Part shown: piece after piece, positions 1,807 through 19,737 of the stretch
Layout of the letters: every line of letters begins with the position of its first letter
Position numbering within the stretch: position 1 is the stretch's first letter
Source of the DNA: a virus
Taxonomy: Duplodnaviria; Caudoviricetes
Length of the DNA: 64,000 bases
IMG/VR virus record: IMGVR_UViG_2597490064_000001
Span: 5,421-69,420 of that record
Direction: 5' to 3' (one strand)
Made by a program: the position numbers and the translations under genes
Notes under the pieces: model-generated
The model's input: the letters and a program-made list of their open reading frames with translations, nothing else
Database searches by the model: none
Told to the model about the DNA's origin: nothing

Positions 1807-1879
1807 GGTGTGCTAGGCGCATCCTGACGTTTCAATGTATTCAGTTTTAGAATGATTGCAACATCAGGATTTCTTATGC

Positions 1880-3760
1880 ATGGCTGACGTTACACAAGGT
1901 GTGGACATGGTACAACTCGGCCATGGGACAGCGGGTGGCATTCGCGCTGATGGCCTGCAAAACGTGTTCACAGGCATGGGCACGACGCGCGATAAGACCA
2001 CACGTACTACTGTCAAGCCTGTCAGCTTTATGGGCCATGAAGACCTTGAGGGTCTTTATGCGCACTGGCTCATGCGCCGCATTGTCGACCTCGTGGCTGA
2101 TGAGAGCACCCGCGAGGGCCTTGAAATTTTGTTTGGCGGGGAGGGCGTGAATGCTGAGACACTTTCTGGCGTTGAGCAGGCCATTGAAGACTTAGAAATT
2201 CTGTCAAGCTTCAACGAGGCAGCTAAGACTTCACGACTGTATGGCGGTAGCGCACTGTTGCTTTACATCGATGATGGCCGTCCGTCTGATATGCCCGTTG
2301 ATCGCAACAACATTCGTGCTGTAGAGGGCATGGAATGCTTGGATCGGCACCAGATTGCGCCGGTTATCAGCGAAGACAGTCTTTACGATTATTCAAAGGC
2401 AACTTACTACCAGATTATTTCGGGCGATCTCATTCAACAGCCCAATCTCCGCGCCATCCATAAGGACAGGATTTTGCGCTTTGACGGCATCTGGCTGCCC
2501 TACCGCACTCGCCAGAAGAACTATGGCTGGGGCATGAGCGTACTGCAGAGCGTATTTGAAAGCTTCAATCACTACTACAGCGGCACTTCCTCCATTGCCA
2601 CCCTCCTTACTGAATTTGACATTTTCGTTCACAAGGTGCGTGGTCTGGCTTCGATGCTTGCTGCAGGCAAGGAAGGACAGGTGCGTGATCGCCTGCAATT
2701 GAACGACATGAGCAAGAGCATCTATCGCGGCTACGCGATTGATGCTGAAAAGGAAGAGCTGGCATTTGTAAGCCGCCATTTTGGCGGAGTGTCTGAAATT
2801 CTGGAAAAGCTGCGGCTTGACATCATTGCCGCATCTGGCATTCCCCATACATTGTTATTTGGCCAGTCGCCGTCAGGACTTGGTGCTACTGGCCGCTCGG
2901 AGGAACGCGACTTTGCCAAGGTTTGCCATCACTACCAGGAGACAAATTTCCGCAAGCCTCTGATGAAGCTGATGGAATACATCATGCTGAGCAAAATGGG
3001 GCCGACTGGCGGGAAAGTGCCCGACAACTGGCGCGTGAGCTTCAAGCCGCTGTTCGAGATGAATGAGCGGGAACTGGCGGACGTGCGGGCGCGTGTTGCT
3101 GCCGTGGATGCCCGCTACATCCAAGTGGGTGTGCTCACACCGCAGGAGGTGGCTGATAGCCGCTTCGGCAAGAGCGAATACAGCATTGAGACCACCATTG
3201 ATCCGTCCATCGTGCGGGAAATGCCCGACAAGGCGGGTAGTGGCGATGGAAAGATGGCAGTGCCCCCTGGTGGCCGCGATCCTCTGGATCAAGCCAACGG
3301 GAGCCTTCCGATGGATGGCACTCGTGAAGCCGCGCCTGACGATCAAACGATGGATGAAGCTGGGCTCTATCTCTCGCGGGATCTAGAGCACCAGCGTGGC
3401 GATGTGGAATTCAAGGACGAGGAACTCCACAAGAAGGCAATTGCTGCAGCGAAGGCCAAGTTCAAGACTTGGCCGAGCGCAGTGGCCGGTGCCTATGTAA
3501 CGCGAAAGTACAAGGAGTTGTATAAGCGCAAGCACGGCAGCATGGAAGGCGCCTTCAAGGGCAAGAAGGAGACTGCCGAATATTTCAAGGAGGATGCCAT
3601 CGAGCCGATGAAGGCTGAAGGGCTCATTCTTGGCGACATCGACGAGGCCTCCCTGATTTCCCAAGCCGATATTGATGCCGCATTGAATCAGTGGAAAGCG
3701 GAGGCGCCGGAGCGCTTCAAGGACATTCTGGAGGCTTCTGATGCTCAGCCCACTGAGTGA
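1880..3760 (+). CDS. Portal protein (DUF1073 family) with C-terminal extension
   Basis: RRIVDLVADESTR, RLYGGS, IHKDRILRF, WGMSVLQ, GIPHTLLFGQSPSGL and F.PL motifs typical of DUF1073 portals; first gene of the head module. Start placed at ATG 1880. Confidence 0.9.
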   Translation: MADVTQGVDMVQLGHGTAGGIRADGLQNVFTGMGTTRDKTTRTTVKPVSFMGHEDLEGLYAHWLMRRIVDLVADESTREGLEILFGGEGVNAETLSGVEQAIEDLEILSSFNEAAKTSRLYGGSALLLYIDDGRPSDMPVDRNNIRAVEGMECLDRHQIAPVISEDSLYDYSKATYYQIISGDLIQQPNLRAIHKDRILRFDGIWLPYRTRQKNYGWGMSVLQSVFESFNHYYSGTSSIATLLTEFDIFVHKVRGLASMLAAGKEGQVRDRLQLNDMSKSIYRGYAIDAEKEELAFVSRHFGGVSEILEKLRLDIIAASGIPHTLLFGQSPSGLGATGRSEERDFAKVCHHYQETNFRKPLMKLMEYIMLSKMGPTGGKVPDNWRVSFKPLFEMNERELADVRARVAAVDARYIQVGVLTPQEVADSRFGKSEYSIETTIDPSIVREMPDKAGSGDGKMAVPPGGRDPLDQANGSLPMDGTREAAPDDQTMDEAGLYLSRDLEHQRGDVEFKDEELHKKAIAAAKAKFKTWPSAVAGAYVTRKYKELYKRKHGSMEGAFKGKKETAEYFKEDAIEPMKAEGLILGDIDEASLISQADIDAALNQWKAEAPERFKDILEASDAQPTE

Positions 3761-4441: not shown

Positions 4442-5638
4442 ATGGCCAAGATTCTTTACTGCGGAGACGCTGCAGTTCAAACTGGATTCGGGCGGGTGGC
4501 AGAGAATCTGCTGCCTGAGCTGGCGAAAGAGCATGAAGTGGTGGTGCTCGCCGTCAACTGGTGGGGCGATCCGCATGAGCTGCCCTATCGGATGTATCCA
4601 GCTAATGCAGGCGGGGCCGATCCGTTCGGCTCCCATCGAATGCAGGAGCTTTTGATTAAGGAGAAGCCCGATCTGGTGTTTGCAGTGAATGATATTTGGG
4701 TGCTGAATAAGCTGTGGAAGGTGGCTAAGCCCCTTAAGGAGGGGATTGGCTTCAAGTGGTATGGCTACTTCCCTACTGACAGCTACGGCTTCTTTCCTGA
4801 GGTGTTTGAGGATTGCAAAGAGTGGGATGGCATGGCCACCTACACGCAGTTCGGCCTGGAAGAAGTGCGCAAGGCGGGTTGTGAAATGCCGTGCGATGTG
4901 ATCCCACATGGCATTGATCGTTCCACGTTCTTCCCCGTGAAGCAGGATGAAGCACGCAAAGCGATGGGCGTGCCCGAGGATCTATTTATCGTCTTTAATG
5001 GCAATCGCAATCAGCCACGTAAGCGCATTGATTTGACCATCAAAGCGTTCATTGCATTTGCGCTGGATAAGCCTGATGCTCGTCTGTGGCTCAACATGGG
5101 GCCGAAAGATCAGGGGTGGGATTTGATTCCTCTGTTTAAGCGCATTTCTCGTGACTATGGTTATGACCCTGCGGGCAAGTTGATTCTCACAAGCAAGGAC
5201 TTTGATGTGATGAATTGCCTGCCAATTGACAAGCTTAATCTTGTCTATAACGCTTGCGATGTTGGCGTTAATACTTGCATTGGCGAGGGTTGGGGTCTGG
5301 TGAATTTTGAGCACGCCGCCACGCGCACTGCTCAGATTGTTCCTGACCACACATCGTTGAAGGAGATCTTCAGCGGCATCCCGCGCATTCCCATCGAAAG
5401 CTGGGAAGTGGACTGTAATTATGGCTTGGACCGTGGCATTCCTTCCGTGAATGATTTTGTGGCCATTCTTAATAATTACTACGAGAATCGCGACAATCTT
5501 GACAAGGTGGCGCAATGGTGCTACGACGAGCTTCAGGATGAGAAGTATTCGTGGAGCACGATTGGGGCAAGCGTGGTTGAAATTATTAACAATGTCCTAA
5601 AAGAGCCCACTTCTGGCAAGGGCTTTGGCAATGACTAA
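4442..5638 (+). CDS. Glycosyltransferase, GT-B fold (GT4-like)
   Basis: TGFGRVAE N-terminus; VIPHGID; NRNQPRKRID; YNACDV...GEGWGLVNFE (E-x7-E motif). Confidence 0.9.
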   Translation: MAKILYCGDAAVQTGFGRVAENLLPELAKEHEVVVLAVNWWGDPHELPYRMYPANAGGADPFGSHRMQELLIKEKPDLVFAVNDIWVLNKLWKVAKPLKEGIGFKWYGYFPTDSYGFFPEVFEDCKEWDGMATYTQFGLEEVRKAGCEMPCDVIPHGIDRSTFFPVKQDEARKAMGVPEDLFIVFNGNRNQPRKRIDLTIKAFIAFALDKPDARLWLNMGPKDQGWDLIPLFKRISRDYGYDPAGKLILTSKDFDVMNCLPIDKLNLVYNACDVGVNTCIGEGWGLVNFEHAATRTAQIVPDHTSLKEIFSGIPRIPIESWEVDCNYGLDRGIPSVNDFVAILNNYYENRDNLDKVAQWCYDELQDEKYSWSTIGASVVEIINNVLKEPTSGKGFGND

Positions 5639-6317
5639 GCGTCGCGTGAGCGTGGGGATTCCCACGCTTTCTTGTTATGACAAGCTCATCCGCTTGTGCA
5701 ATCATCTTCTCAATGATGAGCACCCTTGCATAGAGGCAGAGGTGTTGATTCTTGACAATGGTGGGCGAATGAAGGAGAGCGGTGCCGTTGATGCGCTTGC
5801 GGAAAACTGTGATCTTTCCAAATGGAAGATTGCAGTGCCACCGTATAACCTTGGTGTGGCAAAGTCGTGGAACTATCTCATCAATCAGCTCAATCAATGC
5901 ATCATTGCGAATGACGATGTGGTGTTTGGATTGAATGACATCGCGGCCTTTTTAGAGGCCGCTGATGCCAATCCTGGCGGCATTTTGCTGGAGACAAATC
6001 ATCCAGTTGGTGGATTTTCTACGTTCTACGTGAATCGCCCTGAGCGCTGGCTAGGAATGGGAGGCTTTGATGAGCTATTTGCGCCTGCTTATTTTGAAGA
6101 CAATGATTGTCGATGGCGTCTACTGGTGGAAGATAATCCCGCTATCAAAGTAAATCTTCCTTCATGGAAGCATGACAACAGCAGCACATTGCATAGCGGT
6201 GATGATCGTTACAAGCGAATGCATTGGTGCTGCTTTGAACGCAACAAGGCCTACTACCAAACGAAATGGGGAGGCCTCCCTGGTAAGGAACAATTCACTT
6301 CTCCATTTGGCAAATAG
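5631..6317 (+). CDS. Glycosyltransferase, GT-A fold (GT2-like)
   Basis: VSVGIPT, ILDNG, NLGVAKSWN, ANDD, GGFDELFAPAYFEDND. Confidence 0.88.
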   Translation: MTKRRVSVGIPTLSCYDKLIRLCNHLLNDEHPCIEAEVLILDNGGRMKESGAVDALAENCDLSKWKIAVPPYNLGVAKSWNYLINQLNQCIIANDDVVFGLNDIAAFLEAADANPGGILLETNHPVGGFSTFYVNRPERWLGMGGFDELFAPAYFEDNDCRWRLLVEDNPAIKVNLPSWKHDNSSTLHSGDDRYKRMHWCCFERNKAYYQTKWGGLPGKEQFTSPFGK

Positions 6318-6319
6318 TC

Positions 6320-6862
6320 ATGGCGCATTTTGAGCAGCAAGAGTTCGTACAGAGTGTGAAAAACGAATTTCCGTCGTTTTTCCATGGAGGACGAATCATT
6401 GAGATGGGCAGCCTTGATATCAATGGAAGCGTCAGGCGTTTCTTTGAAAAGCCGAAGGAATATGTAGGTGTTGACGTGGGGCCTGGGCGAGGCGTTGACG
6501 TGGTGTGTGAGGGGCAGAATTATGACGGAGCCACTGGCAGCTTTGATGTGGCCATTTCTGCTGAATGCTTTGAGCACAATCCCCATTGGGAAGCCACATT
6601 CGCAAATATGCACCGCCTGGTGAGAGATGAAGGCTTGCTGGTGATGACCTGCGCCACTGTTGGGCGCCCTGAGCATGGCACAACAAGAAGTGACAGGGGC
6701 AGCAGCCCGCTAACAGTGGGCAAGGGCTGGGACTATTACAAGAATTTGATTGAGGAAGATTTCTATAACGCCTTTCCCATTGCTTGCATGTTTTCGGAAC
6801 ATTGTTTTAAGGTGAATACAAGTAGTCACGATTTGTACTTCTGGGGGCTTGTAAGTAAATGA
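6320..6862 (+). CDS. Class I SAM-dependent methyltransferase
   Basis: IIEMGSLDING, YVGVD..PG.GVDVV, FDVAISAECFEH motifs. Confidence 0.85.
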   Translation: MAHFEQQEFVQSVKNEFPSFFHGGRIIEMGSLDINGSVRRFFEKPKEYVGVDVGPGRGVDVVCEGQNYDGATGSFDVAISAECFEHNPHWEATFANMHRLVRDEGLLVMTCATVGRPEHGTTRSDRGSSPLTVGKGWDYYKNLIEEDFYNAFPIACMFSEHCFKVNTSSHDLYFWGLVSK

Positions 6863-6896: not shown

Positions 6897-7412
6897 TTAG
6901 TACGCTTCAACGTGCTGCCATTGACGCCCCTTCTCGATATGCCCAATTGTTGTCCGCGTTACATTGAGCGCTTTTGCCAACATATTTCGGGAGAGATTTG
7001 GATGAGAGCGGAGAATTGCCTTGATTGCGGCTACTTGGTCTTCTGTTAACTTGCTTCTTCCGTTTCTCTCTCCTTTGTGTGTGCCGTGGATCACGGCGTC
7101 TTTGCAGTTCTCCTCTGGAGATCCCCATGCAAGATTTGACGCGCGATTGTCGCGACGGTCCCCGTTTAGATGCCTGACAACTTGGAAATCTTTAGGAGCG
7201 CCGTGAAATGCTTCGCATACAAGGCGATGTACTTGTCGAGTGAGTCCCGTTACCCCCTTTGGATAAAGTCCGACTTTGCCATACGGCCCAGACCAGTTGA
7301 TTTTCAAAAGAATTCGCCTGCCATTTTTATGCTTGCAAACACGACCTTGATCGCTTACCTCGTATAAGCCATCTGTTTCGACAATGGGGCGCCAGTTTTC
7401 TTTGTGATCCAT
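6897..7412 (-). CDS. NUMOD4-HNH homing endonuclease with C-terminal HTH
   Basis: ENWRPI...YEVSDQGRV (NUMOD4); VHRLVCEAFHG...VRHLNGDRRDNRASNL (HNH); KLTEDQV...W.HV tail; inserted antisense in the head module. Confidence 0.9.
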   Translation of the reverse strand: MDHKENWRPIVETDGLYEVSDQGRVCKHKNGRRILLKINWSGPYGKVGLYPKGVTGLTRQVHRLVCEAFHGAPKDFQVVRHLNGDRRDNRASNLAWGSPEENCKDAVIHGTHKGERNGRSKLTEDQVAAIKAILRSHPNLSRNMLAKALNVTRTTIGHIEKGRQWQHVEAY

Positions 7413-7452
7413 CGAACGATTGCTAGAATAAAATAAAGTGTAGCACGTCGCC

Positions 7453-7761
7453 ATGAGTTTAAAGCAAAAGCGTCAAAAAATTGCTCGTGTTTTGCGCGAA
7501 TTCAAAGCGGGCACCTTGAAGGGCAGTGATGGTAAGCCCGTGAAGAGCCGCCAGCAAGCGATTGCCATTGCAATGAGCGAAGCTGGCATGGAGAAGAAGG
7601 ATAAGAGCGACGCTTATTGGGACGCCTACATCGACACGATGTGTGGCTCGATGAGCAAGGAAGGTATGGAAGAGGAGGAGGAGGAAATGGATGCAAACCC
7701 GGCCGAAGCTCGCTGCAAGGGCTATTTGTCGAGCCTGCGTAAGCGCAGAAAAAAGGGCTAA
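7453..7761 (+). CDS. Small head-associated protein (DUF6496-like N-terminus, acidic tract)
   Basis: KIARVLREFKAGTLKGSDGKPVKSRQQAIAIAMSEAG resembles DUF6496; ends in a slippery site. Confidence 0.65.
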   Translation: MSLKQKRQKIARVLREFKAGTLKGSDGKPVKSRQQAIAIAMSEAGMEKKDKSDAYWDAYIDTMCGSMSKEGMEEEEEEMDANPAEARCKGYLSSLRKRRKKG

Positions 7762-7787
7762 GGGGCGACGCTGAAGGCTTCGCCCCT
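7749..7787 (+). promoter_or_regulatory. Predicted -1 programmed ribosomal frameshift signal
   Basis: In-frame A_AAA_AAG (7749-7755), 5-nt spacer, 8-bp stem AGGGGCGA (7761-68)/TCGCCCCT (7780-87); the -1 frame is open into ORF 7797..8105. Confidence 0.75.
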
Positions 7788-7796
7788 CCTGCAAGC

Positions 7797-8105
7797 GTGA
7801 GAAGTGCTGCGCGGCGCGGCCTTGAGCTGCGCCGAAAGCACGGCAAAGGAGGGCTGACTACTAAAGAAGCTGGAAAGCAAGGCATTGGAAGCGGCGTGGC
7901 ACGAGCCACGTCGCTAGCTAACGGGGACAAGGTTAGTGCGGAGACAATTCGTCGCATGGTTGCATTTTTCTCACGACACGAGAAAAATAAAAGCGGTGGG
8001 GAAGATGACGCCGGTTACATTGCATGGCTTCTATGGGGTGGCGATGCTGGTAAGTCTTGGGCAAATCGAACGCTTAGGATGCTGGAAAAGCGTCAACAAA
8101 AATGA
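7797..8105 (+). CDS. Basic head-associated domain (probably the frameshift extension of 7453)
   Basis: AARRGLELR...GVARATSLANG...TIRRMVAFFSRH...IAWLLWGGDAG domain recurrent in phage head modules; GTG start without SD; open frame extends back to the slippery site. Confidence 0.7.
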   Translation: MRSAARRGLELRRKHGKGGLTTKEAGKQGIGSGVARATSLANGDKVSAETIRRMVAFFSRHEKNKSGGEDDAGYIAWLLWGGDAGKSWANRTLRMLEKRQQK

Positions 8106-8416
8106 TGGAAGGCCTCAGAATGGTGCGTGAGGAAGAAGATGGCATCAGTGTGATGCAGGCCTTGCAGATTCTGTCCCGCAATGCCCATCGGAATACATCT
8201 CGCTGGGAACTTGTTGAGAAGCAAGTTTTCAAGAATGGGCGTCTAGAAGAGACGCATGAATATGTGGTGAGTGTTTATGAGCTTCCTGATTCGCAGTTTG
8301 AGCCTGCCAAGTTTTTAGTGTTTGAAGCAGTGGCGATGGCCAAGGCTTACATCATGGATGGCATTGAGGAGCAACTTGCTTCCATTCGTGATGAAAACGA
8401 AGAAGGTGATGACTGA
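8102..8416 (+). CDS. Hypothetical acidic protein
   Basis: ATGA-coupled to the previous ORF; 104 aa. Confidence 0.6.
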   Translation: MMEGLRMVREEEDGISVMQALQILSRNAHRNTSRWELVEKQVFKNGRLEETHEYVVSVYELPDSQFEPAKFLVFEAVAMAKAYIMDGIEEQLASIRDENEEGDD

Positions 8417-8707
8417 TTAGTCCCTCGTCGCATGAACGACGAAGGACGGGTAGCCCATCAACCAGAGCACACTGAGCTGAAACACTCCGCTCATTACTTT
8501 AATTTGAGCCACGTCTGGTGCCAGGATGCCGCTTTCAATGCGAGAGATGGTGGCCTGGTCGCAGAATAGAAGTTCTGCAAGTGCTCGTTGTGAAAGGCCG
8601 CAGCTTTGACGAGCTTCTCGCACTCGACTTCCGATGAGAGCCTTCGCTTCGCTGTAAGAGGAGCGAGGGCTTTTAACTTTACGTCCGTGCAGCTCTTTCC
8701 GTGTCAT
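8417..8707 (-). CDS. XRE/Cro-C1-type HTH transcription regulator
   Basis: IGSRVREARQSCGLSQRALAELLFCDQATISRIESG; start placed at ATG 8707. Confidence 0.85.
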   Translation of the reverse strand: MTRKELHGRKVKSPRSSYSEAKALIGSRVREARQSCGLSQRALAELLFCDQATISRIESGILAPDVAQIKVMSGVFQLSVLWLMGYPSFVVHATRD

Positions 8708-8767
8708 TCTATGCAGAATAGCATAATGTCTACTAGGATAGGTAAATGAAGCCCCTACAGTGTATGT

Positions 8768-9964
8768 ATGAGCACCACATCTTGTCGGTACGACGTTTCT
8801 CCTATTGAGAAATACGAAATGACGCCGGAGGGTTACCTTCGCGTCTGGGCTTCGATTGCGCGTACCGGCATTCAGCATTACACCGATGCTGACGGTTCTA
8901 TCAGGAAGGAATTCCGTCCTGAAACTGAAGTGGCGTCTCCAGAAAGCCTTGCCTCATTTGCGGGCAAAGCTATCACTATGGAACATCCTCCTGTCCTTCT
9001 GGACAGTGAGAACACCAAGGATTACCAGATCGGCTTCACTGGTTCAGAAATTGTCTATGACAATGGCTTTGTAAAGGCCGTCATGACGGTTACTGATCGT
9101 GAAACCATTGATAAGGTGATGCGCGGCGATGTTCGAGAAGTGAGCGCCGGCTATAGGGTCAACTATGATCCGACGCCTGGCGTTACCGATAGTGGCGAGC
9201 ATTACGACGGCATCCAAACGGAGATCAGTGGTAATCACGTCGCTATCGTTCGTCGGGGCCGAGCCGGCCCGCAGGTGAGGTTGCATTTGGATCGCCAAGA
9301 TGCTGCCGACCCCTCTCTAATTTCCAATGAGGAAACTAAAACTATGAGCGCAAAGGTCGTTTTCGACGGCGCCGAGTTTGAGGTGAGCGAGAGCGTTGCT
9401 CTGGCGATCACCAAAGAACGCGATGACGCCAAGATGTCCTACGAGGACATGAAGAAGAAGTACGACGAGCTGCAGGCCGCTGCTGATTCCATGAAGGCCG
9501 AAATGGACGCCATGGAAGAAGAAATGAAGGGCAAAATGGACGGGGCCGAAGGTCGCGCCGATGCCCTGGCCGAGCAAGTCGATGCTCTGAAGGCCGAGCT
9601 GGAAGAAGCCAAGCAAATCAACGTGGATTCCATTGTTGAAGAGCGCCTGGCCCTCATCTCCCAGGCCAAGCCTGTGCTGGATGCCGCTTATGAATTCAGC
9701 GGCAAGAGCGCCCGTGAAGTGATGGTTGACGCCATCAAGGCAGTTCGCGGCGACTCTATTGCTCTGGACGAGCGTTCCGACGATTATGTCCAGGCAATGT
9801 TCGACACCATCTCTGAAGATGCTGCCAACCGTGCCGATTCCACCGAGGATCTGCGCAAGGCAGTGGCTTCCATTGCCACCCCTGCTTCTGCTCCTTCTTC
9901 GTATATCGAGAAGCTGCAGAACGCTTGGAAGTCCCCTCTCTCCATCTCTAAGGAGGCTAAGTAA
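8768..9964 (+). CDS. Prohead protease/scaffold (DUF2213 family)
   Basis: TPEGYL, IARTG, SLASFAGKAITMEHP, EVSAGY, NHVAIVRRGRAG; coiled-coil scaffold C-terminus. Confidence 0.9.
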   Translation: MSTTSCRYDVSPIEKYEMTPEGYLRVWASIARTGIQHYTDADGSIRKEFRPETEVASPESLASFAGKAITMEHPPVLLDSENTKDYQIGFTGSEIVYDNGFVKAVMTVTDRETIDKVMRGDVREVSAGYRVNYDPTPGVTDSGEHYDGIQTEISGNHVAIVRRGRAGPQVRLHLDRQDAADPSLISNEETKTMSAKVVFDGAEFEVSESVALAITKERDDAKMSYEDMKKKYDELQAAADSMKAEMDAMEEEMKGKMDGAEGRADALAEQVDALKAELEEAKQINVDSIVEERLALISQAKPVLDAAYEFSGKSAREVMVDAIKAVRGDSIALDERSDDYVQAMFDTISEDAANRADSTEDLRKAVASIATPASAPSSYIEKLQNAWKSPLSISKEAK

Positions 9965-14131: not shown

Positions 14132-14390
14132 CACCCCCATTGACCATCTTCAAAGCGATAACGGCGAAGTACATGTAATCAACGCGACAGTGGATGGGCC
14201 GACGCTAGAAGCTGGCATCTTATGCGTTATTTCATTTTCTGAAACCACCATTAGAATCTCAAACGAGCAACATTCGTTTCTTATTGAACTGCCGGAAGAC
14301 GTTCGCGCCAAAGGCGAACGTCTAAAAGCGTTTAACGTGCCATTGGCAATTCTAGATTATGAGCAAGTACAGCTTCCTGCTGGCATCTGA
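14124..14390 (+). CDS. Hypothetical protein
   Basis: Overlaps its neighbours in the tail operon. Confidence 0.5.
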   Translation: MPDTPIDHLQSDNGEVHVINATVDGPTLEAGILCVISFSETTIRISNEQHSFLIELPEDVRAKGERLKAFNVPLAILDYEQVQLPAGI

Positions 14391-14904
14391 AGAAGTCAGC
14401 TATTTTGAACTCACACCTGCTCTGCGCATGCAGAAGCATGGTGGATGGCTGGTAGCGGAAAGCATTGAGCAGGAGGAGATTAGCAAGGCTCAAAGTCAGA
14501 GCACGATTAAAGCGGTGCAGCTTGCAAAGAAGATTGCCGCCGCGAAAGACATTCCTCTTGACGAGGCCTTTGAAATGCTTCAGGGAGGCGGCGGTTTTTC
14601 CGAGAGCGAGCTGTTGGCAGATTACACCGAAGAAGCCCTCTCCATGATCACCGCAGGTGGCTCTGCAGAACTTGGGAATGCAAGGCTTATCACTGCATTT
14701 ATGCGTTGCCGTGGCGAAGGAAAAATTGATGACAATTGGGAGCGTCTTGCTGATTGGTCGATGGATGACACAAAAGGGATGACGCGAGAGCTGACTACCA
14801 AGGTGCTGGAATTTATTGCCGAAGAACAGGATGCGGAGGTGAAAGCAGCACAAGCAAAAAAATCGAAGAGGAAGGTGAAGGAGGATGTCTTGCCGAACGA
14901 ATAG
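14359..14904 (+). CDS. Tail assembly chaperone (gpG-like)
   Basis: Between the tube and tape measure genes; slippery A_AAA_AAA at 14856-14862. Confidence 0.75.
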   Translation: MSKYSFLLASEEVSYFELTPALRMQKHGGWLVAESIEQEEISKAQSQSTIKAVQLAKKIAAAKDIPLDEAFEMLQGGGGFSESELLADYTEEALSMITAGGSAELGNARLITAFMRCRGEGKIDDNWERLADWSMDDTKGMTRELTTKVLEFIAEEQDAEVKAAQAKKSKRKVKEDVLPNE

Positions 14905-15329
14905 AGAAGCAAGCAAGGGCGTTTCTAAAGGGTCTCACTGATTGGAACGCCATCTTCTTTCGCCTCAATGCGTCATGCCTTAAGGATGATCGGTGGGGGC
15001 CTGATGAGTTTTCAAGGCAGCGTGTAAGAGATGTTTTGGCTGCGCTGAAATTTTTAGAGCGGCACGATCATACGCAATACAATCTTCACAGTCTGTCAGT
15101 GGCGAAAATGGCCACAATGGTTGCGCATGCGCTTGGAGGCAAGAAGGTAAGCCTTACTGCAGACGACTTCCTTCCGTTTGATACACGCAGGCTTAAGAAA
15201 GAAACAGGCATTACAGAAGAAAGTATTATTGTGCTTAAGCGCCTGATGAAGACCAGGCGGATGGACACTCGTATCATTTCGATGTTGGCAGAGGAGCTTA
15301 AGAATGCTTCAATGCGGGATAATGAGTAA
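14862..15329 (+). CDS. Tail assembly chaperone -1 frameshift extension (gpT-like)
   Basis: The -1 frame is open from the slippery site (IEEEGEGGCLAERIEKQARAFLKGLTDWNAIFF...) into ORF 15036..15329. Confidence 0.72.
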   Translation: MEEEGEGGCLAERIEKQARAFLKGLTDWNAIFFRLNASCLKDDRWGPDEFSRQRVRDVLAALKFLERHDHTQYNLHSLSVAKMATMVAHALGGKKVSLTADDFLPFDTRRLKKETGITEESIIVLKRLMKTRRMDTRIISMLAEELKNASMRDNE

Positions 15330-15381: not shown

Positions 15382-18300
15382 ATGGCGGCGGAACTTCGGC
15401 TTGGCGTATCGTTTGATCTCGTATATTTTCGCCAGCAGCTTCAAAAGCTGGGTCGGATTGCATCGTCTGAATTCACTGCGCCCATCAAGATCAAGCTTGA
15501 TCGTCGCGTTATTGACAAAGAGCTGAACGATCTTCAGCGCCTGATTAAAAGACGAAAGTACAATATTGAGCTAAATATTACGGGAGGCCTTAGGAAGCAA
15601 ACCTTTGATGACCTCCAGGCTCGTCTTGACGCCCTAAGCACAAGAAAGAAAGTTGAGATTCCTGTCAGCATTAAAAATGCTGCTACTGCCAAAGACGTAA
15701 ACGATACGGTTATTGGCATTAAATCTCGCATTGCCCAGAATCAGACAGTTAAACAGGGCGATGGAAAGATTCGTATTGGCACAAGTATTAAGCCGTCGAT
15801 CACAAATGCCGATGTAGCGGACTTTCGCAGAGTTGTTCAGGCCAAGCTTTCAGGAATTTCAGTAAAAGTCAAAGCTGATATTCAGGGTGGATTCGCATCT
15901 GGTCCAACTGGCCTCGCGGGTCTTCAAGAGTACATGCGCACTCAAGGCTTGTCGGGAGGGAACATGCCCGGCGCGGCCCAGACCGGGCGCCGTACTCAGT
16001 TTGAAGCAGCAGTTGCGCAGGCTTCAAATAGAGAGTTGCAGGACATGATGCGCCGGGCGAAAGTCCAGGGTCGCAGCAGTATCAGAAGCAGCGCAGCGAT
16101 GCGTGAGCGCTTAATGCAGCTAGATGACGCTGCAATGGAAAGCGTGCTTGGCAATTTGCAGATGAACATGAATGACCCTAGGCGGGTCAAACGTGGCTTC
16201 CTCGACCAAGTTGCGCGTGCCGTCTTTTGGATGGCTGGTGTTGATCCTGAATATTTAAAACGTCAAGCTGCGCAACGCAGAGCGTTGCCTGGCGTGGATT
16301 TTCCAGCCACAGTTCCTCCATCGAGGGTTTCAATTGGACCTTCCGGGACTGGTCGAGCTTTGCCTGCTGGCGCCATTCCTGGAGCACTTCCGGGGACAGC
16401 ATTTGGAGCGCGGGGATTTCTTCCTCCCCAGCTTGGGCAAGACCTTCAGAACATTCTCCGTAATGCGGCCTTCACTTTTGTTGATTCATTAAATGCACGT
16501 ATTCGTCAAGTAAACGTCCGGGAGATAGGGCGGCAGGCTTTGCCACCTTCAATGATCCGTGGTCTGTTGCCTTCCGCCGTTGGTCGAACTCCGGCCACTT
16601 ACGGAGGCCCTGCTGACAGAGGATCATTCATCCAAAATCGCATTGCCCAGGCCTACGCGAGATCGGCCCTGCGTGGGGCGAGCGTCATGGCGGAAAGCCC
16701 TCAGGGCTTTGCACTGGGAGCTGGAGGAAGCGGCACTGCTGGACCTTACAGGCCTTTCGCTCAGCCAGAGAGAGGTGGAGCACTGGTTCTTTCCTCACAA
16801 AGAGGGGGCGCCGCGCCGGCTACTGAGCTGCCTAAAAATTACTTGGAAATCGGCAAGGCAATTAAAGGGCTTGATCCAATTCTTCAGAAATCAAAAGTTC
16901 CATTTTCTGGTGCGATTAGAGAGCTTGGTGACGAGTTTGCCACCGCAACAAAACAAGTATTGCTTTATGGCACTGCGTACAAGGCCCTTGCATTCCTTAC
17001 TAGCCTGCCGGGCCAGGCGTTTGAAGCGGCCAAGGGTCTTCAGACAATCAACAATCAATTAGAGGCAGTTACAGGTAGTTCGGCCGCCGCAGATAGGTCT
17101 TTCGCATTTATTGATGGTTTAGCTAATCGATTTAATGTGCCACTTGCGAGTGCGCGGGATGGTTTCGTGAAGCTTTATGCATCAATGGAGCCTGCCGGTT
17201 TTGCTACTGGCGAAATTGAAAATTTGTTTGAAGGCATTAGCAAAGCGACGGCGACGTTTGGCCTAAGTGCCGACCAAGTGGATCGCGTTAACTATGCATT
17301 CGCTCAGATGGCAAGCAAAGGCCAAATTATGAGCGAAGAGCTTAAAGGGCAGCTTGGTGACGTGCTTCCAGGCTCTCTCGCATTGTTTGCTCGCGCCGCT
17401 CAGATGAGCATTCCCGAATTCTCCAAGGCAATGGAGGATGGGGCATTCAAGGGCGAGGCAATGGCGCAAGTATTGCGCAACGTGGCCAAGATCATGAACA
17501 GTGATTTTGGTGGCGCTGCCGCAAATGCTGCCAATACGCTACAGGGCGCATTAAATGGGCTACAAAACTCCGTGCAACGCATGTACGAAGCGTTTGAGCC
17601 TGTTGTTGACATTGCCGCGGCCAATATTTTCCCAGTAATTTCACAAATGGTGAATGACGCCACTAGCGCCATTCAGGCATTTGGGATGGAGATGAAGGGA
17701 ATTGGTCCCGCAACTAGCGTCATGAGCGACGGGGCGCTTGATATTTACAATGCACTCCAGCTAGCCGCTGATACTTTTGACACGGTTATTACCGTTGCTA
17801 AATCACTTGGGTCAACATTCCAAGTGCTGGGAAATATTATCTCTGGCGCTCTGCAGGTATTTAATGCGATAGTTGGAAATCCAATTGGCGAGTTCTTTGT
17901 CAAGCTTGCTGTCAATATTGGTATTGCGACTGCGGCCATTCGTCTTTTCGCAAGCGCTGCCGTTGCAAACGCGGTTCAGCAGCTTGGATTGTTCTTGGGG
18001 AATATCAAGCTAACCATCGCAGCATTGCGCACTTTAATTACCACATCTAGGGCCGCAAAAATTGCAGTTGGTGGCATTGTTGCTGGCACTGTCATGGTTG
18101 GCCTTGAAATGCTCGTTACGCGCATTGCTGCTGCCAAGGACGAGACCGACAAACTTAGAAAAGCAGCCCTTGGAGCCGCAGATGCGCTGCGTGCAATGTC
18201 GGACGCGCAACTGTTTGCGCAGGAAAGAACCATTAAGGACAGAATTCAAAAAATTGAAACGCTCCAAGCTCAAGCTGGTGGTCGTCTTTCGATTAAGAAT

Positions 18301-19737
18301 CCAAGCGCCATGCAGGTTCAAATGGCGAAAGAGCTTGGCCTGCCAATCACCGGAAGGGCCGGTCAAAGTGCAATCAGCATGGTTCGCGCTGAGGGAGAAA
18401 GGCAAAATCTTCTCGCAGCGCTCAATCGGACACAGTACGAATCAAAGAGCCGTACAGAGCAGGCCGTCAGTGGAATTGTTGATCTCGAAAAAGTGGATTT
18501 GGCACCTGGCAAAGGAGAAAAAGGGAAGAAAAAGAGTTTGGACGACTTGATTGGCGGCGACATTAAACGCCGCCTTGACGAGGCAAAAGCTGCATTGGAA
18601 TACGACATTCAGGTGAGGCTTGGTGCAGCTCTCGATGACGAAGATGCGCAGCGAATGATCAAATATTATGAGCAGTACCGCAAGTCAGCCCTTGAACTGC
18701 TTGCAGTGCAAGAAACAATTGCGCAGGTGAACAAATTTGCGCCTCAGCTTATTGCCAACGGCATTGATCCAACAGAAAAACTTGCGGATCTAAAAGCAAA
18801 AGAAAAAGAACTTTTCTACGACATTATGACAATTTCGCAGAAGCATACGAATGATGCTGCGAAAGCCGCTAAAAAACGAGAAGAAGAATTAAGGAAAGAG
18901 GCAGAAAAACGCCAGGAAATTTTGCGTCTCATTGAAGATGCTCAGATAGCGTCGGGTCAAATCACTCCGCGACAGGCGGCGGTCATTCAGCAGCGTCGCG
19001 GTTTTGAAGCAGACATCGCGCGAGCAGAGGAAAGCGCCCCCGACCTCGTACCCCAATTAAAGGCAGCTCAGGCTCAAATCCCCGAAGCGGGAAGTCTTGC
19101 TGAGCTTTACAAGAATACCAAAGATGAGCTTGACAGCCTCACTGATAGCACAAAGCTTCTTGGTGAAGCTGCGAATGGCATTGGTAGTGCATTTGCCAAG
19201 TCTTTCACAGATATTCTTACGGGCGCCCAAACATGGCAGGAAGGCCTTGGAAACGCCTTCCAAAGCGTGGCAAGCATGTTTGCGGACATGGTTGCTCAAA
19301 TGCTTGCCAAGTGGGCTGCGATGCAGATCATTGGGATGTTCCTGCCTGGCGCCAGCGGCCCAGGAGCCGCAAGCCCAATGGCGAGTGCTGCTCGTGGCAC
19401 GCCAGGAGCCATTGCGCCCAATGGAGCACCTTATTTAGGCCCGGCCTTCGCTAATGGCGGCGTTGTTACCGGCCCCACCCTGGGCCTCGTTGGCGAAGGC
19501 CGCTTCAACGAAGCCGTTGTGCCACTGCCTGATGGCCGCAAGATTCCTGTAGAGCTTGGCGGTGGCGCTGGCAACAACATCTCCACTAACATTGTTGTCA
19601 ACATGAATAATGGACAGGCCAGTAGTCAAATGAGCGGAGGCGGCGGTCAAGCGCTCGGCCGCGAACTTGAAGGCGCTGTGCGCAATGTCATCTTGAAAGA
19701 GAGCCGTCCCGGCGGCCTCATCTATAGCGGACGCTGA
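15382..19737 (+). CDS. Tape measure protein
   Basis: 1451 aa, Ala/Gly-rich and helical; AFAQMASKGQIMSEELKGQLGD tape-measure domain; FANGGVV.GPT.GLVGEG..NEAVVPL C-terminus. Confidence 0.93.
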   Translation: MAAELRLGVSFDLVYFRQQLQKLGRIASSEFTAPIKIKLDRRVIDKELNDLQRLIKRRKYNIELNITGGLRKQTFDDLQARLDALSTRKKVEIPVSIKNAATAKDVNDTVIGIKSRIAQNQTVKQGDGKIRIGTSIKPSITNADVADFRRVVQAKLSGISVKVKADIQGGFASGPTGLAGLQEYMRTQGLSGGNMPGAAQTGRRTQFEAAVAQASNRELQDMMRRAKVQGRSSIRSSAAMRERLMQLDDAAMESVLGNLQMNMNDPRRVKRGFLDQVARAVFWMAGVDPEYLKRQAAQRRALPGVDFPATVPPSRVSIGPSGTGRALPAGAIPGALPGTAFGARGFLPPQLGQDLQNILRNAAFTFVDSLNARIRQVNVREIGRQALPPSMIRGLLPSAVGRTPATYGGPADRGSFIQNRIAQAYARSALRGASVMAESPQGFALGAGGSGTAGPYRPFAQPERGGALVLSSQRGGAAPATELPKNYLEIGKAIKGLDPILQKSKVPFSGAIRELGDEFATATKQVLLYGTAYKALAFLTSLPGQAFEAAKGLQTINNQLEAVTGSSAAADRSFAFIDGLANRFNVPLASARDGFVKLYASMEPAGFATGEIENLFEGISKATATFGLSADQVDRVNYAFAQMASKGQIMSEELKGQLGDVLPGSLALFARAAQMSIPEFSKAMEDGAFKGEAMAQVLRNVAKIMNSDFGGAAANAANTLQGALNGLQNSVQRMYEAFEPVVDIAAANIFPVISQMVNDATSAIQAFGMEMKGIGPATSVMSDGALDIYNALQLAADTFDTVITVAKSLGSTFQVLGNIISGALQVFNAIVGNPIGEFFVKLAVNIGIATAAIRLFASAAVANAVQQLGLFLGNIKLTIAALRTLITTSRAAKIAVGGIVAGTVMVGLEMLVTRIAAAKDETDKLRKAALGAADALRAMSDAQLFAQERTIKDRIQKIETLQAQAGGRLSIKNPSAMQVQMAKELGLPITGRAGQSAISMVRAEGERQNLLAALNRTQYESKSRTEQAVSGIVDLEKVDLAPGKGEKGKKKSLDDLIGGDIKRRLDEAKAALEYDIQVRLGAALDDEDAQRMIKYYEQYRKSALELLAVQETIAQVNKFAPQLIANGIDPTEKLADLKAKEKELFYDIMTISQKHTNDAAKAAKKREEELRKEAEKRQEILRLIEDAQIASGQITPRQAAVIQQRRGFEADIARAEESAPDLVPQLKAAQAQIPEAGSLAELYKNTKDELDSLTDSTKLLGEAANGIGSAFAKSFTDILTGAQTWQEGLGNAFQSVASMFADMVAQMLAKWAAMQIIGMFLPGASGPGAASPMASAARGTPGAIAPNGAPYLGPAFANGGVVTGPTLGLVGEGRFNEAVVPLPDGRKIPVELGGGAGNNISTNIVVNMNNGQASSQMSGGGGQALGRELEGAVRNVILKESRPGGLIYSGR

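Follow-up and report, generated by a model that had tools for sequence, protein, structure and literature searches.

The stretch of DNA described here belongs to a tailed virus (Duplodnaviria; Caudoviricetes) and covers positions 5,421 to 69,420 of the IMG/VR virus record IMGVR_UViG_2597490064_000001; this whole stretch of 64,000 nucleotides (nt) is called the window. Between the portal gene and the prohead protease gene of the window lie three short open reading frames (ORFs) on the plus strand, of which the first two, ORF1 and ORF2, are the main subject here. The ORF2 domain is encoded in the -1 frame relative to ORF1, and a slippery heptamer, the stop codon of ORF1 and a predicted RNA hairpin closely follow each other at the junction of the two (Table 1). 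Judged from the comparison with related loci, this arrangement is very probably a real -1 programmed ribosomal frameshift site, through which two products would be made: ORF1 itself and a fusion of 217 amino acids (aa) that carries the ORF2 domain at its C-terminus.

Read in the frame that starts at 7453, the 3' end of ORF1 runs AGA AAA AAG GGC TAA, with GGC as the sole codon between the heptamer and the stop codon. A spacer of 5 nt (7756-7760) separates the heptamer from the 5' arm of the hairpin, AGGGGCGA (7761-7768), which is the exact reverse complement of the 3' arm, TCGCCCCT (7780-7787). Folding of positions 7756-7800 with RNAfold gives -20.4 kcal/mol, with a stem of 8 base pairs (bp), a 1x1 mismatch, 3 further bp and a GAA loop. 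An intrinsic terminator was considered for this hairpin and ruled out, as there is no U-run 3' of it. From position 7755 onwards, the -1 frame reads GLRGDAEGFAPPASVRSAARRG... and stays open through the GTG at 7797 to a stop codon at 8103-8105. Upstream, this frame is closed by a TAA at 7740-7742 and opens two codons 5' of the heptamer, so it cannot be entered from further upstream; the overlap of ORF1 and the -1 frame is 7 nt (7755-7761). The coding sequence of the fusion would be 7453-7755 joined to 7755-8105, giving 101 + 116 = 217 aa and 23.9 kDa, and GDAEGFAPPASVR is a tryptic peptide that is possible only with translation of the stretch 5' of the GTG. A first-pass annotation, made from the letters of the window, had already pointed to the heptamer one codon before the stop, the 5-nt spacer and the perfect 8-bp GC-rich stem, all of which are confirmed by direct reading. 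Its further statements that a fusion of about 217 aa is read through the -1 frame into the ORF starting at 7797, that two small basic domains are joined (see the isoelectric points, pI, in Table 1), and that the pair belongs to a head module, which is right by position, hold as well.

Table 1. Positions of the junction elements and of the genes mentioned in the text (window numbering).
Feature	Positions	Strand	Remarks
Portal gene	1856-3760		
Two glycosyltransferases and a methyltransferase dependent on S-adenosylmethionine	4442-6862		
Homing-endonuclease gene, HNH/NUMOD4/helix-turn-helix (HTH)	6897-7454	-	divergent; start overlaps ORF1 start by 2 nt
ORF1, zero-frame product	7453-7761	+	102 aa, 11.5 kDa, pI 9.4
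Slippery heptamer A_AAA_AAG	7749-7755	+	in the zero frame of ORF1; canonical X_XXA_AAG
-1-frame part of the putative fusion (ORF2 frame)	7755-8105	+	116 aa, pI 10.7, all-alpha domain
Zero-frame stop TAA	7759-7761	+	last base is the first base of the hairpin stem
Predicted stimulatory hairpin	7761-7787	+	8-bp stem 7761-7768/7780-7787; inner 3 bp 7770-7772/7776-7778; GAA loop
GTG	7797-7799	+	ORF2 start in public protein records; internal valine codon if the fusion is made
ORF3	8102-8416	+	104 aa, no family; ATG overlaps ORF2 stop (ATGA)
HTH (repressor-like) ORF	8417-8878	-	overlaps the listed start of the protease ORF (8768) by 111 nt
DUF2213 prohead protease	8768-9964		
Candidate tail slip, first ORF	14359-14904		
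Candidate tail slip, open -1 frame	14769-15329		
Candidate tail slip, A_AAA_AAA	14856-14862		in frame
Tape measure gene	15382-19737		phrog_2335, E 1e-225

Relatives of the junction were collected from IMG/VR in two ways. The first sample was obtained by protein-guided scans, in which the ORF2 frame gave 534 relatives, of which the best 80 were kept, and ORF1 gave 26 loci; both halves were adjacent in 97 of 109 loci, and 59 distinct junctions remained after dereplication, the window included. The second sample was obtained with a DNA pattern that fixed AAAG, the stop codon and the start of the 5' arm and left the first three bases of the heptamer and the 3' arm free. This pattern gave at least 118 matches, of which 80 loci were examined, with 53 new distinct junctions, and both samples together comprise 160 loci. 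ORF2 is in the -1 frame in 47 of the 59 junctions of the first sample, each time with a canonical heptamer in an identical position (38 A_AAA_AAG, 6 G_GGA_AAG and 3 C_CCA_AAG), with the zero-frame stop codon one codon past the heptamer in 44 and directly after it in 3. In the second sample, the ORF2 domain is encoded in the -1 frame in 39 of the 53 junctions, again always with a canonical heptamer (25 A_AAA_AAG, 11 G_GGA_AAG and 3 C_CCA_AAG), and the stem has 8/8 pairs in 34 and 7/8 pairs in 5 of them. The fourteen unrelated chance matches to the pattern have 2-5 stem pairs, and a slippery triplet is absent from all but one of them.

Pooled over both samples, the canonical heptamer is present in 86 of 86 junctions with the -1 configuration (63 A_AAA_AAG, 17 G_GGA_AAG and 6 C_CCA_AAG). 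Homologs lacking the signal, which the first-pass annotation had named as evidence that would speak against frameshifting, were not found among those with the -1 configuration (0/86). In the loci L056 and L064 the signal is kept, but the frame changes upstream. Variants of the A-run were also observed in IMG/VR: L052 resembles its relative L042 with one additional A, which places ORF2 in frame, and L031 has one A fewer. These two loci may be homopolymer assembly errors or natural variants. Outside IMG/VR, blastn of positions 7400-8450 against GenBank phages gave no match, and tblastn with ORF1 gave five distant phage records only, none with the same arrangement.

The hairpin is conserved as a structure as well. 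Over 46 distinct sequences, 98.1% of the cells of the 8-bp stem are paired, and compensatory changes are present. At the stem pair 24-40, CG was seen 31 times, AU 8 times, UG 4 times and other combinations 3 times (n=46); the 5' base of this pair is a synonymous third position of a Gly codon and co-varies with the first base of an Ala-to-Ser exchange on the 3' side. In addition, pair 23-41 includes one AU and one GU, and pair 25-39 is GC in 30 and GU in 16 sequences. The covariation score of the stem is 0.160, compared with 0.108 in shuffles, none of 500 reaching the observed value, and slid controls give at most 0.096. Conservation and covariation in homologs, which the first-pass annotation had proposed to examine, are both present. 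These patterns indicate that the hairpin is selected as RNA. A pseudoknot had also been proposed, and this part does not hold up: only 4 bp are possible (CGCU 7769-7772 with AGCG 7794-7797), which compete with the inner 3-bp helix, pairing of the pseudoknot helix reaches 62.5% of cells, and 8 of the 46 distinct relatives retain its pair 29-53.

In public databases, ORF2 is taken to begin at the GTG. BFVD holds a 102-aa entry, 100% identical, that starts there, and the Atlas gives ORF2 from residue 15, read as M. Among the relatives, the corresponding codon is GTG in 18, GTA in 16, GTT in 12 and GTC in 1 of the 47 junctions of the first sample, and GTA in 26, GTT in 7 and GTG in 6 of the 39 junctions of the second, which makes GTG in 24 of 86 overall. 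No ATG, GTG or TTG is present in the ORF2 frame before residue 16 in 21/47 and 20/39 junctions, together 41/86, and an ATG is found in 1/86. In these 41 junctions, the ORF2 domain can be made only through ORF1, and initiation at the GTG alone, which had been listed as a contrary possibility, is contradicted.

The stretch between the ORF1 stop and the valine codon shows how this region is constrained. The entropy at ORF2-frame codon positions 1, 2 and 3 is 0.48, 0.25 and 0.99 bits, respectively; Ser is encoded by AGY codons in some junctions and by TCN codons in others, and all changes at Ala, Asp, Phe and Pro are synonymous. By its substitution pattern, the stretch before the GTG evolves as -1-frame coding sequence. 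Homology likewise begins 5' of the GTG: tblastn matches start from residues 1-3 of the -1 product, and in a phmmer search against 1.84 billion representatives the matches mostly start at residues 4-10. With a 264-aa protein of Limnohabitans phage DC31, the alignment begins at residue 6 (51% identity), and a conserved F-x-P-P-x-x-V motif precedes the GTG in an alignment of 40 sequences. With the public start at what would be an internal valine, the conserved N-terminus of the domain is lost and the real product of 24 kDa is probably hidden.

True in-frame fusions of both domains are found in 8 of the 59 loci (7 different sequences); these are 182-203 aa long and have no heptamer. In the 45 nt after the equivalent position, the mean minimum free energy is -9.2 kcal/mol in the in-frame loci (n=8), which act as a natural control for the hairpin, versus -18.1 kcal/mol in the shifted ones (n=47). 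Homologs with the domains in one frame, which had been put forward as a possible sign of a sequencing indel in the A-run, do exist, but without the heptamer and with weaker hairpins. A maximum-likelihood tree of ORF2 and the protease was built from the 46 rows that match the protease over its full length. On this tree, the in-frame state requires 4 changes, of which at least 3 are forced by well-supported branches, and G_GGA_AAG and C_CCA_AAG need 3 changes each, counts that recombination could inflate. Frameshifted and fused forms interconvert, a pattern that is known for conserved recoding sites.

In the proposed mechanism, ribosomes translating ORF1 would reach the A_AAA_AAG heptamer while the hairpin blocks the mRNA entry channel. 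In a fraction of them, the lysine tRNAs would move by one base towards the 5' end and pair anew with AAA AAA, and reading would continue in the -1 frame to 8105. The remaining ribosomes would read GGC and stop at the TAA, yielding the 102-aa ORF1 product. The fusion would be the main, and in many relatives the sole, route to the ORF2 domain, and expression of ORF3 may depend on the same shifted ribosomes. We infer from these comparisons that the slippage is ribosomal, and its efficiency and the roles of its products are likewise inferred.

Several observations weigh against such a mechanism. The heptamer by itself is within chance, as AAAAAAG occurs 10 times in the window versus 16.7 expected, and the z-score of the hairpin is just -1.94, with 9 of 200 shuffles folding equally well. 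The single sequence is thus only mildly beyond chance, and the strength of the signal comes from the relatives, which are mutually related metagenomic contigs and not independent draws. The arms of the hairpin also encode conserved R-G-D and F-A/S-P residues, and the conservation of the stem is partly at the protein level; conversely, part of the conservation of the R-G-D codons is explained by their position in the 5' arm of the hairpin. The in-frame fusions retain RGD or RDD together with a weaker stem, and given this retention a protein-level role of RGD/RDD is possible. The first-pass annotation had also proposed an RGD-A site that would release the second domain, a proposal that finds no support. 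Lineages with only the fused form imply that these, at least, can do without a separate short product and thus without a set ratio. Finally, a GTG is present at Val15 in the window and in 12 of 47 relatives, and an upstream TTG or GTG is found in the ORF2 frame in 14/47 junctions of the first sample.

The last point bears on one alternative, namely that ORF1 and ORF2 are two ordinary genes, with ORF1 ending at 7761, ORF2 initiating at the GTG, and heptamer and hairpin being incidental. The 102-aa viral protein on record, the GTG codon in the window and part of the relatives (18/47 and 6/39), and the chance-level frequency of the heptamer would fit this explanation. It is nevertheless extremely unlikely, as the codon is just a valine codon, GTA or GTT in most relatives, no start exists before residue 16 in 41/86 junctions, and no purine-rich Shine-Dalgarno (SD) sequence lies 5' of 7797. 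In the preceding 38 nt, moreover, the -1 frame shows the periodicity of coding sequence and encodes conserved residues, the conserved domain starts 5' of the GTG, the heptamer is present in 86/86 junctions, and in-frame fusions exist. Next to frameshifting, some extra initiation at the GTG may occur in the phage of the window.

Both products could also arise if RNA polymerase stutters on the A-run and the fusion is translated from edited transcripts. For transcriptional slippage to be efficient in bacteria, about nine consecutive A or T are required; the run here consists of six A, in the window and in 63/86 junctions, and the loci with one A more (L052) or fewer (L031) may reflect a slippery template or homopolymer error. 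The other 23 of the 86 junctions have G_GGA_AAG or C_CCA_AAG with three A only, which are ribosomal slip sites, and a conserved, covarying hairpin 5 nt downstream is a hallmark of ribosomal -1 frameshifting, which makes transcriptional slippage very unlikely. An artefact or decay, in which a single fused gene would either carry an A-run indel from sequencing or have become a pseudogene, has next to no probability. Homopolymers are error-prone and in-frame homologs exist, but these homologs have no A-run and differ by loss of the basic tail and not by one base. The arrangement recurs in 86 distinct junctions from many samples and with three heptamers, so sequencing error is excluded; contigs from three other metagenome runs cover 7749-7755 without an indel, and both halves are under purifying selection. 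In an RNA-library run, contigs were found only at 7841-7991 and 8063-8213, which leaves the slip site uncovered, and such libraries can contain DNA. The comparative evidence strongly supports the core suggestion of the first-pass annotation, namely that ORF1 and ORF2 are joined by a -1 frameshift of the dnaX/IS3 type.

ORF1 matches Pfam DUF6496 over residues 4-44 (E 3.3e-8; 34.2 bits versus a gathering cut-off of 24). The DUF6496 region is N-terminal and is followed by an acidic linker and a basic C-terminal helix, and the protein ends one codon past the slip site. In an AlphaFold2 (AF2) model with a predicted local distance difference test score (pLDDT) of 72.5, DUF6496 forms three helices and a short hairpin, residues 66-81 form a disordered linker, and the basic C-terminal helix follows. 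Foldseek with the ORF1 structure against the PDB found none at E<=1e-3, and a PDB profile search gave two rows only, both at chance level.

The ORF2 frame matches just the middle of phrog_2859 (E 2.4e-16), for which no function is annotated there. The AF2 model of the ORF2-type domain has six helices (pLDDT 87.1). The family comprises 3900 clusters (50% identity) at E<=1e-3, and the domain is found N-terminally, internally or C-terminally, with at most three copies per protein; the proteins that contain it are 115-1547 aa long. Its conserved motifs include GIGSGV-x-RA and W-L-L-W-G-G; GIGSGV may have a helix-hairpin-helix-like look, a likeness that no search backs. No Pfam family was found for the domain up to E 1 (LPD families included) and no NCBIfam family up to E 0.1. 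Against the PDB, a 40-sequence profile gave no match and Foldseek none at E<=1e-3, and the best Z in a VIA-align search of 48,161 chains was 4.4, lower than the values that chance alone produces for helical bundles. All Atlas neighbours of ORF2 are named 'hypothetical protein'.

Fusion partners of the ORF2-type domain in other proteins give indications of its surroundings. The partner-domain scan covered 117 of the best 150 representatives, the other 33 being omitted for size only. Partners among these 117 are the 2H phosphoesterases 2_5_RNA_ligase2 (16), LigT (10), AKAP7-like (4) and Acb1 (3), as well as XkdF-type prohead protease (9), DUF5824 (6), InPase (4) and DUF5661 (3); single cases include portal, HK97-type capsid, ddrB-ParB, Mu-like protease, DUF2213 and LPD29. 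Names of BFVD neighbours include prohead protease, XkdF, portal, Mu gp29, ParB, Dps and HAD. In phage DC31, the domain forms the N-terminal part of an XkdF-type protease, the gene of which lies just 5' of a DUF2213-like gene, and in Roseobacter phage CRP-811 it heads a protease-capsid fusion. The family accordingly accompanies prohead proteases, portals, capsid proteins and polyvalent counter-defence enzymes (2H/Acb1-like phosphoesterases, InPase). Iyer et al. 2017 (PMC5512222) argue that polyvalent phage proteins are packaged in the head, and the partners found here are those which they attribute to such proteins.

The position between portal and protease, together with the fusion partners of the domain elsewhere, suggests that the products are head-associated and packaged; for the fusion, the chances that this is right are roughly even. 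A fixed ratio of internal head proteins, as proposed in the first-pass annotation, would be a reasonable reading. A more specific idea, which is rather unlikely at this moment, is that the frameshift doses a head-loading module: ORF1 would be a basic capsid- or DNA-associated protein, a set fraction of which is extended by a general capsid-targeting or DNA-accompanying domain. If true, this would be the first programmed frameshift that controls the amount of a packaged, and possibly injected, phage protein.

Multiple known systems resemble the junction. In Escherichia coli dnaX, which encodes tau and gamma, A_AAA_AAG is followed by a stable hairpin a few nt downstream, and the shifted frame stops at once, giving the short product. 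The ORF1/ORF2 junction has the identical heptamer, a downstream hairpin, a stop codon near the slip site and two products sharing their N-terminal part; unlike in dnaX, the zero frame stops and the shift yields the long product, and the proteins are unrelated. An SD-like GGAG or GAGG, 5-22 nt 5' of the heptamer and comparable to the upstream stimulator of dnaX, was observed in 7 of the 9 relatives with G_GGA_AAG or C_CCA_AAG and in 8 of the 38 with A_AAA_AAG; the loci with this element include L011, L013, L033, L045 and L071, whereas the window, unlike dnaX, has none. The element may be a dnaX-like stimulator offsetting a less slippery heptamer, or it may result from the Glu-rich codons of the linker and from the relatedness of the loci.

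The insertion sequences IS3 and IS911 produce the transposase OrfAB by slippage from OrfA, and their second ORF overlaps the first by tens of codons. As in the junction described here, A_AAA_AAG is combined with a downstream structure; slippage there joins two domains that fold separately and fixes how much short relative to fused product is made, as it would here. The junction differs in its location in a virion module and in its overlap of only 7 nt. In phage T7, the head gene 10A/10B undergoes a -1 slip that the long product needs, and the major head protein of Lactobacillus phage A2, said to have been studied by Garcia et al. in 2004, is reportedly frameshifted as well. In these phages, as proposed for the ORF1/ORF2 junction, some of the molecules gain a C-terminal extension through -1 slippage close to the 3' end of a gene of the head module. 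Unlike their major capsid proteins, ORF1 is a small DUF6496 protein, and its extension would be a complete and widely mobile domain.

The slip site of the lambda G/GT pair is G_GGA_AAG, which is the second commonest heptamer in the ORF1/ORF2 junctions (17/86). Both systems involve a pair of morphogenesis genes whose long product depends, here presumably, on -1 slippage late in the first ORF, with a position conserved across very divergent phages. Unlike gpG/gpGT, the pair described here lies between portal and prohead protease and has a strong conserved hairpin, and the proteins are unrelated. That ORF1 and ORF2 are themselves a tail assembly chaperone pair of this kind was considered and rejected, as their location is between portal and protease and not 5' of the tape measure gene. 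For the frameshift in the lambda gpG/gpGT tail assembly chaperone, both PMC10885494 and PMC7302621 cite Xu, Hendrix and Duda 2004. Polyvalent proteins, as treated in the main text of PMC5512222, resemble the present case in that the ORF2-type domain stands beside the hallmark polyvalent domains 2H phosphoesterase, InPase, LPD29, ddrB-ParB and Acb1 in multidomain proteins; they differ in that here two domains only are joined, by recoding, and neither has a known activity. The word 'frameshift' has 0 occurrences in that main text.

Mechanistically, the junction belongs to an ordinary heptamer-plus-hairpin class, and it represents a well-supported case that concerns another pair of genes, one within the head module. 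Conserved frameshifts of tailed phages are well documented mainly in tail assembly chaperones and a few capsid genes. Literature searches, with supplements outside their scope and publication elsewhere being possible, found no description of the ORF1/ORF2 slip site and no mention of DUF6496. The three interchangeable heptamers, the covarying hairpin and the repeated switches to in-frame fusion, where the hairpins are relaxed, make this family of junctions useful for training and testing frameshift predictors. In addition, attention is drawn to a very large phage domain family for which neither a Pfam name nor a solved fold was found.

The genes around the junction are arranged in the order portal, a 220-aa ORF, two glycosyltransferases, a methyltransferase, the HNH/NUMOD4 gene, ORF1, ORF2 and ORF3. 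Downstream of ORF3 follow the minus-strand HTH gene, the DUF2213 prohead protease, a cement protein and the major capsid protein. ORF3 is located downstream of ORF2 in all 57 junction loci whose DNA extends that far, and its translation may be coupled to the shifted frame, as the overlap of its ATG with the stop codon and the constant order suggest. No Pfam, PHROG or NCBIfam match was found for ORF3, and its Atlas scores are at most 0.81. The idea that ORF2 and ORF3 are a split version of the 264-aa protein of DC31 was rejected, as ORF3 fails to align to the C-terminal half of that protein. The minus-strand HTH ORF, an odd gene within a head operon, is present at the same place in nearly all related loci, and the true start of the prohead protease may lie further downstream than 8768.

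Among the 59 junction loci, the homing-endonuclease gene is present only in the window, L031 and L037, which makes it a sporadic insertion just 5' of the frameshift gene. The glycosyltransferases and the methyltransferase, located between the portal and the head-assembly genes, are variably present in relatives. A candidate slip of the tail-assembly-chaperone type was observed directly 5' of the tape measure gene, with an in-frame A_AAA_AAA (Table 1); no PHROG family was found for either ORF of this candidate pair (14359-15329). In locus L049 (L049:1361-3004), the ORF1 frame extends upstream without a stop for 548 codons, across a region that contains a CxxxCxxC motif, and ORF1 may be fused to a larger upstream protein there.

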